A stretch of DNA of 15,530 nt, taken from the IMG/VR virus record IMGVR_UViG_3300012346_000220, positions 83,826 to 99,355 of that record. One strand, 5' to 3'. Of this stretch, positions 11,830 to 14,970 are shown piece after piece; the stretch's first letter is position 1, and each line of letters starts with the position of its first letter. The notes under the pieces are model-generated. The model was not told where the DNA came from. It was given only the letters and a program-made list of their open reading frames with translations, and ran no database searches. The position numbers and the translations under genes were made by a program. Origin of the DNA: a virus (lineage: Duplodnaviria; Heunggongvirae; Uroviricota; Caudoviricetes).

Positions 11830-13485
11830 TTACCCCAAAACAAGCATCTGATAACCACCACCAGCGGACTCAGGATTCAGGGAAATCAGCGAAACTGCAT
11901 CAAGCGCGGCCATTAAACAGTCGATCTTTCCAGACCCTGAACCCGCCTTTGTAATGATTACTGCGTTGCCCCTTGGCTCGACTTTGGCGTTAGATACGCA
12001 CCATGTCATTAAGGGTTGACCGCCGTGAATCATGGCTTTTTCAGCCAATTTGCGCTCTGCCGTTTTTATAGATCCGCTCATCCTCCAACCTTGAGAGATT
12101 CCAATGATCTTTTCAGGGGGTATATCTGCCCCGTGCAAGGCTTCGATGATGCCGCCCAATCCATGCGGGTCAACACCTATTTTGTCTAGCAGTCCAGAAG
12201 TCTCGACCTTGGCGCAAATCTCCGCGACTCCCTCAACATCCTGCCCAATCCTGTCCACAATGGTCAAATCACCGTCATTTTTGAAGTCATTAAAGCGGCT
12301 TGCCTCTTGTTTGTGGCGTTTCATCACGCTCGGATGCGCCCATGCGTGAGTCCATAGCATCCAATTTTGCTGACCTTTTATCCGTCCGATCACGGCCAAA
12401 CCAAGCAAGTCATCAAGGCCACCACCGTCAATTCCAATATCCGCGACCTCGCATTCGGCCAGGATTCGGTCTAATGTGACGGGTTTTGCGTCCTTGCACT
12501 GTTCCCAAAAGTCAGCGCCAGCCCATCCATCAGACTTTAAAGCCATGCCGATTTCGACATTTAAATGCTGAGATGCCCATCGCCTGAGTTCTTCCTCACC
12601 CGATGCTTCGGCTCCCTCATAGTCTGGAATCAATCGATCTACCGTGATTGACCGCCCGTTATTGGGTGTAACCATGTGCCAGTTGTTTGTGTTTCGCCAG
12701 TCAACATCACGGGGGAATTCGTACAGGATAGGCAAGACAGGGGCGATTAGCTTTCCATCCCTGACCGACCTAGCCTTTTGCAGTTCAGCCTTAAAAACCC
12801 CTGTTGGTGGTCTTTCTGACTGCGTGGTGATGGTAAGCAAAAAGCCTTCAGGCTGTGAAATAAGACCACCGCGAAGCTGTCCAAGCACTCGGTCAGCGTT
12901 ATGGTTTTCAGCGATAACGTGCAATTCATCCAGCAAAACCCCGGCAGGTTTCGCACCTGTCACGATCTTTGGATCAAAGGATTTAACTTTAAGGAATGCC
13001 CCTGTTGGTCGGTAAGTTACCTGTTTGATGTGGTCACGAACGTGGAATTTAGCCTTCAAGACTTCATCGGCTTCAATCATTCCGACTAGCTGAGAATAGG
13101 CAAGGTTCGCCACATCATGAGTCGGGGCCACCATCAGGTATTCAGCACGGGGACGGCGTGACATTAGCACCGCCGTTAGCATAATGGCTGCGCCTTTTGT
13201 GGTTTTCGAGTTCTTCTTGGGGACTAGTTCAAAGACTTCGCGGATATGCCGAACGTCATTTATCGGGTCATAGCTGCCAAACAAAGCGGCTACCAAATCC
13301 CGCGCCCAATCTCCGCAAGCCTCTGCCATTACGGGCTGTTTTGGCACGTCAGGAAGCCTCAAACGGTTAAAGATAGCCACCGCCCGATCAGACTCACCCC
13401 TAAACAATGGCAAATCAGGAACAAGCGTTCGGCCTGTCCTTATTCTGTTTTCCCAATCAGGGCAGGCGGTTAACCAATCACTCAT
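11830..13485 (-). CDS. terL: Terminase large subunit
   Basis: 551 aa; Walker A variant LVPKKNSKTT, Walker B VLLDELH, nuclease motifs IGIDGGGLDD, VDPHG and KIDCLMA. Confidence 0.97.
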   Translation of the reverse strand: MSDWLTACPDWENRIRTGRTLVPDLPLFRGESDRAVAIFNRLRLPDVPKQPVMAEACGDWARDLVAALFGSYDPINDVRHIREVFELVPKKNSKTTKGAAIMLTAVLMSRRPRAEYLMVAPTHDVANLAYSQLVGMIEADEVLKAKFHVRDHIKQVTYRPTGAFLKVKSFDPKIVTGAKPAGVLLDELHVIAENHNADRVLGQLRGGLISQPEGFLLTITTQSERPPTGVFKAELQKARSVRDGKLIAPVLPILYEFPRDVDWRNTNNWHMVTPNNGRSITVDRLIPDYEGAEASGEEELRRWASQHLNVEIGMALKSDGWAGADFWEQCKDAKPVTLDRILAECEVADIGIDGGGLDDLLGLAVIGRIKGQQNWMLWTHAWAHPSVMKRHKQEASRFNDFKNDGDLTIVDRIGQDVEGVAEICAKVETSGLLDKIGVDPHGLGGIIEALHGADIPPEKIIGISQGWRMSGSIKTAERKLAEKAMIHGGQPLMTWCVSNAKVEPRGNAVIITKAGSGSGKIDCLMAALDAVSLISLNPESAGGGYQMLVLG

Positions 13486-13901
13486 TGAACAGGGCCAGAG
13501 GGAAGCAACTCACCCCAGCTAGTGCCTTCATGATTTGTCTTAGCTTCTTCCTCGACCTGTTCTTTCTTGCCTAGCTTTTCGTCAACGGTCTTTTTGGCGT
13601 AAATATAGGGAAGCAAGGCTTTTGCTGCGTCAATCCGAAAACGGTCTTCAACCCCTGCATCAGTCATTACACCCGTCAAAAACTTTAGCGGGTCTTCATG
13701 TTCTGGAATGTCAGTAACCCGGATTTGCTTTTTGTCTTGGGTTTGCTTTTCAGGTTTTGTTTCTGATTTCTTTGGTTTGACCGCTTTTGCTTTCGGCTCA
13801 GGCTTTTGATTTGCCTGAATAGTAAAGCCCATCCCAATCGGTTTACGACCAGCGCCAGGGCGAAAACCACCCCATTGTTTTTCGTCTGTCTCTTGTTTCA
13901 T
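13482..13901 (-). CDS. terS: Terminase small subunit
   Basis: 139 aa directly upstream of terL (ATGA overlap); WGGFRPGAGRKP and PLKFL...RIDAAKALLPY...GKKE motifs. Confidence 0.85.
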   Translation of the reverse strand: MKQETDEKQWGGFRPGAGRKPIGMGFTIQANQKPEPKAKAVKPKKSETKPEKQTQDKKQIRVTDIPEHEDPLKFLTGVMTDAGVEDRFRIDAAKALLPYIYAKKTVDEKLGKKEQVEEEAKTNHEGTSWGELLPSGPVQ

Positions 13902-14046: not shown

Positions 14047-14355
14047 TCATATGTCCAAGGCTCCACCCGATGCGCGAATGCTGGCCTCTTGGCTGCTCTT
14101 ATCCTTATGGCAGGCAGTGCATAGGCTTTGGCGGTTGTTGTCTGACTCTTTGCCACCAGCCCATAAGGGCACGATGTGGTCAACCTCTACCGCTGGTGTC
14201 ACTATCCCTTGTTTCATGCAAATCTCGCAGGCTGGATTAGATAATAGCTTTTCTCGCCTGATCTTTTGAAGTGCTGACCCTCTTATGCGTGTGGTACTGC
14301 TTAGGCTTTGTGGGCCTGTCCTTAGCGTTTGGAGGGATGGCTTGAGGGTTTTCAT
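14047..14355 (-). CDS. HNH endonuclease, packaging-associated (HK97 gp74-like)
   Basis: 102 aa; CEIC...VDHIVPL.AGG...NRQSLCTACH..K; immediately upstream of terS. Confidence 0.93.
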   Translation of the reverse strand: MKTLKPSLQTLRTGPQSLSSTTRIRGSALQKIRREKLLSNPACEICMKQGIVTPAVEVDHIVPLWAGGKESDNNRQSLCTACHKDKSSQEASIRASGGALDI

Positions 14356-14681
14356 TCAACGATTTTTGCGCTGCAAGTAACGGCTGTGTAGCAGTTGTAT
14401 TTACTCATTTCAAAGATGTTGCCGTTTAATGATTTGCACTCAGGTGCGGTTGTCTTGGCGTTAGGTGGGATTTGATTCCTAATTGCCTGGATTGCTGCCT
14501 CGACTGTTGCCACCTTTTCCCACGGTAAGAACTGGCAGGAATGTCCTACAACATCGCCTTTGGTCTTAATCGTGGTGTTGCCTACCAATTGCCCGTCTGA
14601 TTGGGTTGTTTGGTCGTGTGGCAAGAATGTCGAGCATCCTGTCATTAGGATGGCGGCTGTAATGGTGATGATGGTTTTCAT
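14352..14681 (-). CDS. Lipoprotein with RcsF-like four-cysteine domain
   Basis: 109 aa; signal peptide ending LMTG-C16; LVG...GDVVGHSCQ and CYTAVTC match the RcsF pattern as recalled; AAGGA RBS. Confidence 0.7.
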   Translation of the reverse strand: MKTIITITAAILMTGCSTFLPHDQTTQSDGQLVGNTTIKTKGDVVGHSCQFLPWEKVATVEAAIQAIRNQIPPNAKTTAPECKSLNGNIFEMSKYNCYTAVTCSAKIVE

Positions 14682-14833
14682 TTGGATTTCCTTTGGTTTT
14701 TGTCAATCTTTACCGCTGTTTCATTTGTGGTGAATCTGCATCCGTTAGCGCATTCGTAGCGTCTGTAGGTTCCTTGTGGTCTTTGGCGCGTTTCAAGAAC
14801 AAAGCTCCATGTTTTGCATTGTGGGCATTTCAT
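14678..14833 (-). CDS. Stand-alone zinc-ribbon protein, 51 aa (NrdR N-terminal / Ogr-Delta-like; not in ORF track)
   Basis: MKCPQCKTWSFVLETRQRPQGTYRRYECANGCRFTTNETAVKIDKNQRKSK; C-x2-C-x21-C-x3-C; AAGGA RBS; ATGA overlaps at both ends. Confidence 0.8.
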   Translation of the reverse strand: MKCPQCKTWSFVLETRQRPQGTYRRYECANGCRFTTNETAVKIDKNQRKSK

Positions 14834-14970
14834 GTCTTGGATTCCTTTATTGCATCACAAATCCCGTGAGCGCAAAGAGAAAAGACAAGCAAACATGGTG
14901 CAAGAAACGGGTGCATTAACCCGGCAATTACAGAAAGACAAAGACAACCGAAAAGCAGAATAGGGCTCAT
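14830..14970 (-). CDS. Small hydrophobic Cys-rich peptide, 46 aa (not in ORF track)
   Basis: MSPILLFGCLCLSVIAGLMHPFLAPCLLVFSLCAHGICDAIKESKT; ATGA overlaps at both ends fill the gap exactly. Confidence 0.65.
   Translation of the reverse strand: MSPILLFGCLCLSVIAGLMHPFLAPCLLVFSLCAHGICDAIKESKT

Follow-up and report, generated by a model that had tools for sequence, protein, structure and literature searches.

In Escherichia coli, the lipoprotein RcsF acts at the outer membrane as the sensor of the Rcs phosphorelay, and it is a model for Gram-negative sensing of outer-membrane damage; RcsF structures include PDB entries 2Y1B, 2L8Y, 6T1W (with BamA) and 9BIY (with IgaA). The globular domain of RcsF lodges inside the BamA barrel (bioRxiv 10.1101/823146), its disulfides are non-consecutive, C74-C118 and C109-C124 (PMC5651002), and the loop of residues 55-65, which includes F63 and R64, is the contact with IgaA (bioRxiv 10.64898/2026.05.08.723598). 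When the linker is removed, about 50% of E. coli RcsF stays in the inner membrane, and Rcs is turned on constitutively (bioRxiv 10.1101/2021.01.05.425367). The Rcs system is confined to enterobacteria (PMC5651002). [quoted passage not shown] An earlier note on the DNA described here knew of no described RcsF-like system in phages, and this is in line with literature searches and with the absence of the family described below from cultured phages, PHROGs and PADLOC.

We analyzed a stretch of 15,530 nucleotides ("the window") from the 99-kb record of an uncultured phage and found the following features around a gene for a putative lipoprotein, P0001.

14678 to 14833, minus strand: Zn-ribbon ORF of 51 amino acids, upstream of P0001 (Zn_ribbon_NrdR, E 6.3e-6; Ogr_Delta, E 6.8e-4; both slightly under the cut-off)
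14687 to 14694, minus strand: Shine-Dalgarno sequence AAAGGAAA, 6 nt before the P0001 ATG and within the 3' end of the upstream ORF (from the sequence)
14352 to 14681, minus strand: gene of the probable RcsF-fold lipoprotein P0001 (109 amino acids, stop codon counted in; ORF and translation)
14634 to 14681, minus strand: P0001 signal peptide and lipobox (residues 1-16; L12-M13-T14-G15-C16; from the sequence, with a weak LPAM_1 match)
14565 to 14633, minus strand: short, polar P0001 tether (residues 17-39; from pLDDT and the BLASTP segment)
14355 to 14564, minus strand: P0001 core domain, RcsF-like, with Cys 49, 82, 97 and 103 (residues 40-109; AF2 model, Foldseek, VIA and hhalign)
14047 to 14355, minus strand: HNH endonuclease gene, downstream of P0001 (PF01844, E 4.8e-12; phrog_589, E 6.6e-22)
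13482 to 13901, minus strand: terminase small subunit, TerS (phrog_641, E 1.3e-14)
11830 to 13485, minus strand: terminase large subunit, TerL (TerL_ATPase and TerL_nuclease domains)

The lipoprotein, its lipobox, its four further cysteines and the adjoining HNH gene were thus as the earlier note had described them. The P0001 ORF starts with ATG, and ATGA overlaps join it to both neighbours, the first formed by the stop of the Zn-ribbon ORF and the start of P0001 and the second by the stop of P0001 and the start of the HNH gene. Downstream the order is HNH, TerS and TerL, so that P0001 heads the packaging block. Judged from this arrangement, translation of P0001 is predicted to be coupled to that of the Zn-ribbon gene upstream and of HNH, TerS and TerL downstream, and the gene evidently shares both transcription and translation with its neighbours. 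We also considered P0001 as an independent moron; we looked for a promoter, a terminator or a GC shift of its own at the gene and found none, and this reading was set aside for that reason. Comparison of P0001 with an 83%-identical homologue on contig L001 gave a dN/dS of 0.14 at a dS of 0.81, and the sequence evidence indicates that P0001 is a real phage gene under purifying selection.

The N-terminal part of P0001 was compared with that of RcsF. Residues 1-16 are close to identical in P0002-P0004, and the serine at position +2 after the lipid cysteine means that P0001 is without the Asp inner-membrane retention signal. The tether is predicted to be disordered to about residue 36, with a pLDDT below 50 for mature residues 1-20 in the structure model. 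As the earlier note had observed, the Pro-rich linker of RcsF is missing; 33 residues separate C16 from C49, compared with 58 between the lipid cysteine and the first domain cysteine of RcsF, and Pro21 is the sole proline ahead of the domain, with no Pro-rich run. The tether includes the stretch QLVGNTTIK, which is similar to the RcsF loop ELVGKPFR. In a one-on-one BLASTP comparison, residues 31-50 of P0001 showed 9 identities in 20 with residues 57-75 of RcsF (E 0.007 for that single comparison); the RcsF sequence given in the earlier note agrees with the annotated K-12 record. In the loop alignment, F63 and R64 of RcsF correspond to I38 and K39. This likeness of residues 31-40 (QLVGNTTIKT) to RcsF 57-65 (ELVGKPFRD) was found only in the P0001-P0003 clade; it is missing from the rest of the phage family and lies in the segment predicted to be disordered. 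A complex prediction for P0001 and the periplasmic domain of E. coli IgaA, run with this stand-in host and without controls, gave a score of 0.00, which speaks neither way on binding.

The core domain of P0001 was modelled by AF2 with a domain pLDDT of about 90 and a strand, helix, strand, short helix, strand topology. Its four cysteines, C49, C82, C97 and C103, align with C74, C109, C118 and C124 of RcsF, and for this reason disulfides 49-97 and 82-103 are predicted, the same pairs that the earlier note had expected. We found G46, C49, A63, C82, C97 and C103 (P0001 numbering) to be invariant in all 39 phage and RcsF-family sequences. RcsF was the top structural match for each of three models. 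For the model whose input was four phage sequences only, the top four Foldseek matches were RcsF, with probabilities of 0.60-0.99 (0.97-0.99 for three crystal chains); for the deeper model, the top five were all RcsF, with TM scores of 0.55-0.61 for four of the five; and the ESM Atlas's own model landed on RcsF clusters with a TM score of 0.64. The four-sequence and Atlas models were built with no RcsF-family sequence as input, whereas the deeper model is not independent evidence because its alignment includes such sequences. The Foldseek E-values for RcsF were weak (0.01-0.05 for the four-sequence and deeper models). With VIA, the P0001 model matched RcsF with Z-scores of 8.3 (2.4 Å over 69 residues) and 8.2, and the next fold reached a Z-score of 5.7; DUF74/YbjQ and dodecins also matched, at Z 5.0-5.7.

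At the sequence level, the relationship with RcsF emerged by way of profiles. The Pfam RcsF model (PF16358; gathering threshold 29 bits) gave no match to P0001 at E <= 1 and none in the whole 99-kb phage record, and within the phage family it matched 2 of 21 members weakly (best E 0.017). Direct searches with P0001 of Pfam, NCBIfam, PHROGs, PADLOC and, by phmmer, PDB returned only signal-peptide matches, and HMMER profiles from phage sequences alone (A1, A3) did not reach RcsF in PDB. A 12-sequence profile (A2) matched RcsF in PDB with E-values from 1.7e-8 to 4e-6 and with all four cysteines aligned. Using hhalign, we obtained 96.2% for A2 against RcsF, 97.1% for the phage-only profile A3 against the RcsF-family alignment A4, and 94.2% (E 1.1e-7) for the phage profile against the RcsF family when signal peptides were removed and only the domain was compared; with E. 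coli RcsF as the only target, the phage-only profile reached just 59.8%. Of the profile check proposed in the earlier note, the Pfam part thus failed and the profile-profile part, at 94-97%, bore out the RcsF-like fold.

The connection also runs through a chain of links, in which the phage family scores 26-56 bits against an intermediate group and that group scores up to 31.8 bits against Pfam RcsF; the bridging proteins P0007 and P0011-P0013 match Pfam RcsF at 20-29.4 bits. Taken together, sequence profiles and models indicate that the similarity of P0001 to RcsF exceeds chance at both the profile and the fold level. We conclude that the P0001 core is a real but remote homologue of the RcsF globular domain, reached through intermediate sequences, and consider the assignment of P0001 to the RcsF fold highly probable.

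The best-scoring relatives of the phage family, at 26-56 bits, are atypical RcsF-family lipoproteins of other Pseudomonadota (L032, L034, P0007, P0011, P0012 and P0013), whereas canonical RcsF scores only 3-19 bits. The earlier note had proposed a captured or mimicking RcsF fold; given this large difference and the failure of Pfam RcsF, a recent capture of RcsF was not borne out. The atypical proteins and the P0001 family have in common the motif VxGHSC[QK], the start C-[SA]-P-F-V-P after the lipid cysteine and NC[WY]...C near the C-terminus; the atypical proteins are longer (121-129 amino acids) and have an extra N-terminal strand, which the shorter P0001 lacks. Two of them are chromosomal, L032 in genome G151 and L034 in genome G349, and the neighbours of L032 are phage-like (DUF5681, TubC_N). 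One atypical protein is fused to Sel1 repeats. IgaA was missing in all four of the genomes with atypical RcsF-family proteins that were checked, including G151 and G349. The presence of RcsF-family proteins in genomes without IgaA, together with the fusions, indicates that the fold is reused outside Rcs. Fusions of an RcsF-family domain to trypsin-like peptidases were also noted, under automatic Atlas cluster labels only.

The P0001 family comprises about 30 sequences, all metagenomic, which were collected by searching 1.84 billion representatives exhaustively with a profile and by consulting a word index; wherever the context was long enough to read, it was phage-like. A tblastn search with P0001, its naturally soluble relative P0024 and E. 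coli RcsF of 50,697 cultured phage records revealed no phage homologue, a search of plasmids gave no match, and the family is not represented in PHROGs or PADLOC. The RcsF query did match a contig of a Salmonella chromosome and a fragment record of 2.9 kb (RcsF residues 1-30 only) filed among the cultured phage records. Pattern scans with A1, A3 and A8 over genome, viral and metagenome contigs found nothing, and a scan with A7 found two short IMG/VR contigs only. A search of E. coli Sakai for RcsF-like genes turned up rcsF and yjeI only. In about 9 of 21 phage members the lipobox is missing and a plain signal peptide is present instead, which indicates that outer-membrane anchoring is not essential to the function of the family. 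The genomic settings are variable: beside TerS and Mob_Pre, upstream of HNH, after Mom, or at the ends of replication operons, while on contig L011 the family gene adjoins a Rap1a-like gene and a YadA-anchor gene. As read from these contexts, the gene has evidently changed position among phage genomes. In a close relative of the present phage (HNH 88% identical), the gene has kept its first ~98 nt, but its domain is 42% identical and comes from the other subfamily; the domain thus appears, on sequence comparison, to have been swapped between close relatives. Domain diversification of this kind is typical of arms-race genes. The sequence searches indicate that the P0001 family is a rare, separate, phage-borne branch of the RcsF fold.

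Host clues were obtained from other genes of the phage. The best relative of TerL (65% identical) is in a prophage of a freshwater Pseudomonadota MAG, in which RcsF was searched for and not found. TerL is about 50% identical to that of alphaproteobacterial prophages and equally to that of Salmonella and Stx phages. Matches of the tail fibre stood at no more than 24-27%, most of them with enterobacterial phages, and no tRNA genes were found in the phage.

Our best guess is that P0001 faces the periplasm and binds an envelope protein of the host, possibly a barrel in the outer membrane, and we give this explanation as a whole, an RcsF-fold phage lipoprotein binding a host envelope protein, a probability of roughly 0.45. 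P0001 would be exported by Sec, lipidated and oxidized in a Dsb-dependent manner, and would then sit on the periplasmic side of the outer membrane. In that position its RcsF-like domain would engage an envelope protein of the host, in the likeliest case at the periplasmic mouth or lumen of an outer-membrane barrel (BamA or a receptor porin, for example), a step modelled on RcsF-BamA and, comparably, on T5 Llp-FhuA. Such binding would alter the cell surface during infection, either to exclude other phages or to shield progeny from debris. The specific mechanism, in which P0001 at the outer membrane binds a β-barrel and thereby alters the cell surface, is more tentative than the explanation as a whole, and we would sooner doubt it than rely on it. 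The position of P0001 in a late-type operon, and not as an independently expressed moron, counts against the best explanation, as do the family members without a lipobox, the missing link to Llp or Cor beyond the signal peptide and the remoteness of the RcsF homology.

P0001, or its soluble relatives, might instead mimic a signal by reaching IgaA or an analogous sensor and switching Rcs and the capsule response on or off. Residues 31-40 of P0001-P0003 resemble the IgaA-contacting loop of RcsF, linker-less E. coli RcsF activates Rcs constitutively (bioRxiv 10.1101/2021.01.05.425367), and family members without an anchor would be free in the periplasm. We nevertheless regard this as distinctly unlikely. 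Rcs occurs only in enterobacteria (PMC5651002), and nothing puts the phage on such a host; the MAG with the best TerL relative (65%) yielded no RcsF; the loop likeness is limited to three close sequences and to a segment predicted to be disordered; and the family is nearer to atypical than to canonical RcsF (26-56 against 3-19 bits), with IgaA missing from all four atypical genomes. A bolder proposal, that phages carry a stripped-down RcsF as a stress-sensor decoy, which would take BamA or porin docking sites or engage the inner-membrane regulator and so control stress and capsule signalling or OMP assembly, with the domain swaps as the trace of an arms race, seems very unlikely to us. Rather unlikely, in our estimate, is an accessory role for P0001 in the periplasm with some other target, neither a barrel nor a signalling protein, for example a cell-wall hydrolase or a competitor's periplasmic toxin that it would inhibit or bind in an immunity-like manner; the fold would then be no more than a stable scaffold held by disulfides. 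The occurrence of lipoprotein and soluble secreted forms in one family would make the periplasm as such the site of action, the Rap1a-like and YadA-anchor neighbours on L011 resemble an envelope-directed cargo cluster (the function of Rap1a being that of the Pfam family name), and genomes that lack IgaA also contain RcsF-family domains, which are found besides in fusions with Sel1 or, by Atlas labels, trypsin-like peptidases. However, the Rap1a adjacency was seen once, and P0001 had no match in PADLOC or to an inhibitor family.

Two further explanations concern what kind of protein P0001 is. In lambdoid phages, lysis genes lie near the terminase genes, and a small phage lipoprotein with cysteines in that position could be an o-spanin subunit (Rz1-like) or another lysis regulator. 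However, the endolysin of this phage (phrog_465, E 4e-56) is encoded about 24 kb off, after the tail fibre genes, and its cassette has membrane proteins and a 77-amino-acid lipobox ORF that is a better o-spanin candidate; P0001 is modelled as a folded globular protein and not as a Pro-rich extended peptide, no overlapping i-spanin gene is present at its locus, and some relatives are without a lipid anchor. A lysis role is hardly credible on these grounds, and the spanin reading was set aside because the phage has a separate lysis cassette elsewhere. It could also be argued that P0001 is not an RcsF homologue, and that convergence or chance produced a small two-disulfide α/β domain of the broad YbjQ/dodecin-like shape. 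Short Cys-rich domains can inflate profile scores, the direct searches gave no RcsF match, the Foldseek E-values of 0.01-0.05 are weak, and DUF74/YbjQ and dodecins match at Z 5-5.7. We see only a slight chance of this, as the links from the phage family through the intermediates to Pfam RcsF are significant, six positions are invariant in 39 of 39 sequences, RcsF leads the next fold by 2.5 Z units, and hhalign against YjeI/DUF4156 gave just 17.6%. P0001 likewise had no Pfam match to DUF4156 (YjeI) or YbjQ/DUF74 (the 17.6% being that of A3 against YjeI).

With the linker gone, and in some members the lipid anchor too, a phage-only branch of the RcsF fold would amount to a naturally minimal version of the RcsF domain, which could reveal what the fold binds by itself. 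The occurrence of RcsF-family proteins in bacteria without IgaA suggests that the function of the fold is older or wider than Rcs. Should its target be BamA, a porin or a stress sensor, P0001 would represent a new class among the few envelope-directed phage proteins, beside Llp, Cor and Bor. The rarity of the family limits the value of the finding.

Compared with the described phage proteins, P0001 resembles Llp and Cor in being a small phage lipoprotein at the outer membrane and facing the periplasm, this location being predicted for P0001. The mature proteins start alike, with C-S-T-F-G-P-K-D in Llp and C-S-T-F-L-P-H-D in P0001. The Cor-family profile phrog_1119 matched residues 1-23 of P0001 only (E 0.0097), and Llp (8a60_B) matched the phage profile over residues 2-48 with an E-value of 0.66; these matches involve the signal peptide plus a few residues at the start of the mature protein, with no homology to P0001 in the mature domains of Llp or Cor, and Llp was absent among the structural matches listed for the P0001 models by Foldseek and VIA. 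RcsF and P0001 have in common that they are lipoproteins with the same globular fold, four cysteine positions, the G-x-S-C-Q motif and the helix Ala, and the P0001 clade also shares with RcsF a short stretch, LVG followed by a hydrophobic-basic pair, ahead of the first strand. Several differences were present. In particular, RcsF has a disordered 30-residue Pro/Lys-rich linker (residues 16-50) that serves for OMP threading and reach, whereas P0001 has a polar tether of about 20 residues, and strand 1 of RcsF has no counterpart in P0001. Unlike RcsF, P0001 is encoded by a phage, and some of its relatives are without a lipid anchor.

The RcsF-like lipoprotein proposed in the earlier note was confirmed. 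Its gene has a Shine-Dalgarno sequence, AAAGGAAA, 6 nt 5' of the ATG and lies in the following run of overlapping or adjacent genes.

14678-14833, minus strand: zinc-ribbon ORF of 51 aa, upstream; its stop overlaps the start codon of the lipoprotein ORF (ATGA)
14352-14681, minus strand: lipoprotein ORF (product P0001), 109 codons, ATG start
14047-14355, minus strand: HNH endonuclease gene; its start overlaps the lipoprotein stop (ATGA)
13482-13901, minus strand: TerS, after the HNH gene
11830-13485, minus strand: TerL, after TerS

A protease-capsid fusion and a portal gene were found further along the same block, after TerS and TerL. A consensus scan revealed no promoter or terminator flanking the lipoprotein gene, and its G+C content of 0.47-0.48 was like that of its neighbours. 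The gene is therefore not a self-contained moron but belongs, within the operon, to the block at the head of the packaging genes. Comparison with an 83%-identical homologue on the metagenomic contig L001 gave a dN/dS of 0.14 (dS 0.81), which indicated that the frame is translated and under purifying selection. We also observed a 46-aa, very hydrophobic and Cys-rich ORF (14830-14970, minus strand) between a 91-aa ORF and the zinc-ribbon ORF, with ATGA coupling on both sides and no family match; it is possibly a small membrane protein.

P0001 is an exported protein, lipid-anchored by sequence rules, in which a short tether leads to a two-disulfide domain with the RcsF fold. Its N-terminus is a lipoprotein signal with the lipobox L-M-T-G-C16 and Ser at position +2, and further cysteines occur at positions 49, 82, 97 and 103, exactly as the earlier note had read them. 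The Pro-rich linker of RcsF, which that note had reported missing, was indeed absent: the first domain cysteine follows C16 by 33 residues, compared with 58 in RcsF, and the segment between the two is polar and contains one proline only. In ~9 of the 21 phage sequences of the family, the signal peptide is a plain one that lacks the lipobox cysteine; thus, the lipid anchor is optional for the family. After the lipid cysteine, P0001 (residues 16-23) and T5 Llp (PDB 8a60_B) both read C-S-T-F-x-P-x-D, a match that is not significant (E 0.66), and the bridging proteins begin C-[SA]-P-F-V-P, a recurring likeness to this start. A start of this kind may act as a motif for tethering or sorting.

The similarity to an RcsF profile predicted in the earlier note held in profile-profile comparison but not against Pfam, where P0001 had no RcsF match at E <= 1. 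Single-sequence searches with P0001 retrieved no PDB chain and nothing useful from NCBIfam, and PF16358 (Pfam RcsF) was found nowhere in the whole 99-kb virus record. Pairwise BLASTP against E. coli RcsF, which was taken from the annotated K-12 record and agreed with the sequence given in the note, aligned only P0001 31-50 with RcsF 57-75 (9/20 identities, E 0.007 for one comparison). Three relatives were obtained by a word-index search, and an exhaustive HMMER search of 1.84 billion representatives with a profile built from them yielded nine usable relatives besides one false positive, a repeat protein. The relatives P0007, P0011, P0012 and P0013 matched Pfam RcsF at 20-29.4 bits (cut-off 29). 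The 12-sequence profile aligned all four cysteines with those of the RcsF chains in the PDB (E 1.7e-8 to 4.4e-6), and its hhalign comparison with E. coli RcsF gave 96.2%. To avoid circularity, an alignment of 21 phage-only sequences was compared with one of 15 cellular RcsF-family proteins. Only 2 of the 21 matched Pfam RcsF, both far under threshold (best E 0.017). The two alignments matched at 97.1% (E 6.5e-11), and at 94.2% (E 1.1e-7, 65 columns) once signal peptides and tethers were removed, whereas the phage alignment reached only 59.8% against E. coli RcsF alone and 17.6% against YjeI (DUF4156). G46, C49, A63, C82, C97 and C103 were invariant in the joint 39-sequence alignment.

The structural models bore out the RcsF-like fold suggested in the note, with RcsF the best match by two methods. 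An AlphaFold2 model for which only the four closest phage sequences were used was of low quality (pLDDT 56), yet RcsF supplied all four of its best Foldseek matches in the PDB (probability 0.60-0.99, TM up to 0.56). With the 39-sequence alignment, the domain reached a pLDDT of ~90 and the best five Foldseek matches were RcsF chains at probability 0.99-1.00 (TM 0.55-0.61 in four, lower for the NMR model), followed by a first other match at E 1.4. In a scan of 48,161 chains that did not rely on Foldseek, RcsF also ranked first, with Z-scores of 8.3 (2.4 Å over 69 residues) and 8.2, ahead of a DUF74/YbjQ protein (5.7) and dodecins (~5.3-5.5). The ESM Atlas single-sequence model of P0001 fell on RcsF clusters with a TM of 0.64. 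Disulfides 49-97 and 82-103 are expected in P0001 by homology to C74-C118 and C109-C124 of RcsF (PMC5651002).

Among 401 sampled Pseudomonadota genomes, 14 encoded an RcsF-family member, five canonical with a Pro-rich linker and nine atypical; eight of the nine passed the Pfam RcsF cut-off, and L034 fell below it. IgaA, the inner-membrane partner of RcsF, was found in one canonical genome and in none of the four atypical genomes tested, which indicated a use of the RcsF fold beyond the Rcs phosphorelay. In a subgroup-HMM comparison that is partly circular, since the phage profile itself recruited the intermediate group (L032, L034, P0007, P0011-P0013), the phage proteins reached 26-56 bits against this group, compared with only 3-19 bits for canonical RcsF and 1-17 bits for a third type, 'TNLD'. 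Several atypical proteins from loci L032-L045 also matched DUF4156 (YjeI) and YbjQ_1 weakly, which hints that these families and RcsF form one superfamily. The best-scoring 'chromosomal' relative (L032:2-926) has neighbours matching DUF5681 and TubC_N, which are often phage-associated, and may itself belong to a prophage, close to a gene resembling a small terminase.

The P0001 family comprises ~30 sequences, every one metagenomic, and all readable contexts were phage-like and varied.

L001:442-1981: the closest homologue, P0002, adjoining TerS and a Mob_Pre (relaxase-type) gene
L003: a member 5' of an HNH gene
L011:1955-4092: a secreted member between a YadA-anchor gene (upstream) and a Rap1a-like gene (downstream), near tail genes on a 25-kb phage contig
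Another context: after a Mom gene
Another context: after ThyX and nucleotide-metabolism genes
Another context: at the end of a replication operon

The L001 context may be a satellite or phage-plasmid rather than a full phage. The L011 run looks like a set of envelope-directed cargo genes, Rap1a being, by its Pfam name, a T6SS amidase immunity family. L003 (225-1657, against window 14047-14700) presents the same slot in a close relative, with an 88%-identical HNH. The first ~98 nt of its lipoprotein gene match the window at 86% identity and are followed by a domain of another subfamily (42% identity), and the slot holds two additional ORFs (134 and 84 aa). The 23-nt lipoprotein/HNH junction of the window recurs identically where the L003 lipoprotein gene ends, and L003 has one further copy of 28 nt at 89% identity. 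This position is a hot-spot for cassettes in which the domain is being exchanged, and the differences look like cassette exchange at conserved seams. At BLAST sensitivity, neither plasmids nor 50,697 records of cultured phages contained the family, and PHROGs and PADLOC lacked it as well; in IMG/VR, only two short contigs carried it. P0001 is phage-specific, mobile and diversifying. Full-text literature searches brought up no publication describing an RcsF homologue encoded by a phage.

In the periplasm, P0001 would act as a binder of a host envelope protein. The target that we favour is a barrel of the outer membrane (BamA or a receptor porin), at a probability of about one in three, because the globular domain of RcsF lodges in the BamA lumen (bioRxiv 10.1101/823146), small inner-leaflet phage lipoproteins such as T5 Llp block receptors (PMC9586334; bioRxiv 10.64898/2026.03.26.714494) and the swapping of the domain among close relatives is suggestive of an arms race. 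Action on host Rcs signalling is attractive, given that, in E. coli, RcsF without its linker stays in the inner membrane and activates Rcs constitutively (bioRxiv 10.1101/2021.01.05.425367), but it requires an enterobacterial host, and the nearest relatives of the phage family come from IgaA-less genomes. As to the host, TerL shared 65% identity with that of a prophage in a freshwater Pseudomonadota MAG that yielded no RcsF, and ~50% with alphaproteobacterial prophages as well as with Salmonella and Stx phages; the tail fibre gave weak matches only. Another periplasmic target is a possibility that the anchor-less family members would fit.

A role as a lysis gene or spanin is unlikely, since the phage has a separate and distant lysis cassette.

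G000 (full virus record) 73586-75174 (L046:9587-11174), minus strand: lysis cassette, outside the window, after the tail fibre genes

This cassette, ~24 kb away, contains an 84-aa two-TM holin-like ORF, a 125-aa ORF and the endolysin (phrog_465, E 4e-56), accompanied by membrane proteins and a separate 77-aa ORF (lipobox LVTAC) that overlaps a 158-aa membrane protein gene and is a candidate o-spanin.

P0001 also differs from RcsF in its loop, first strand and linker. The IgaA-contacting loop of E. coli RcsF (residues 55-65, including F63 and R64; bioRxiv 10.64898/2026.05.08.723598) is echoed by QLVGNTTIK in P0001-P0003 only and is absent from the rest of the phage family. The first strand of RcsF has no counterpart in P0001. 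Whereas residues 16-50 of RcsF form a disordered linker, P0001 has a short polar tether between C16 and C49, of which ~20 residues are predicted to be disordered.
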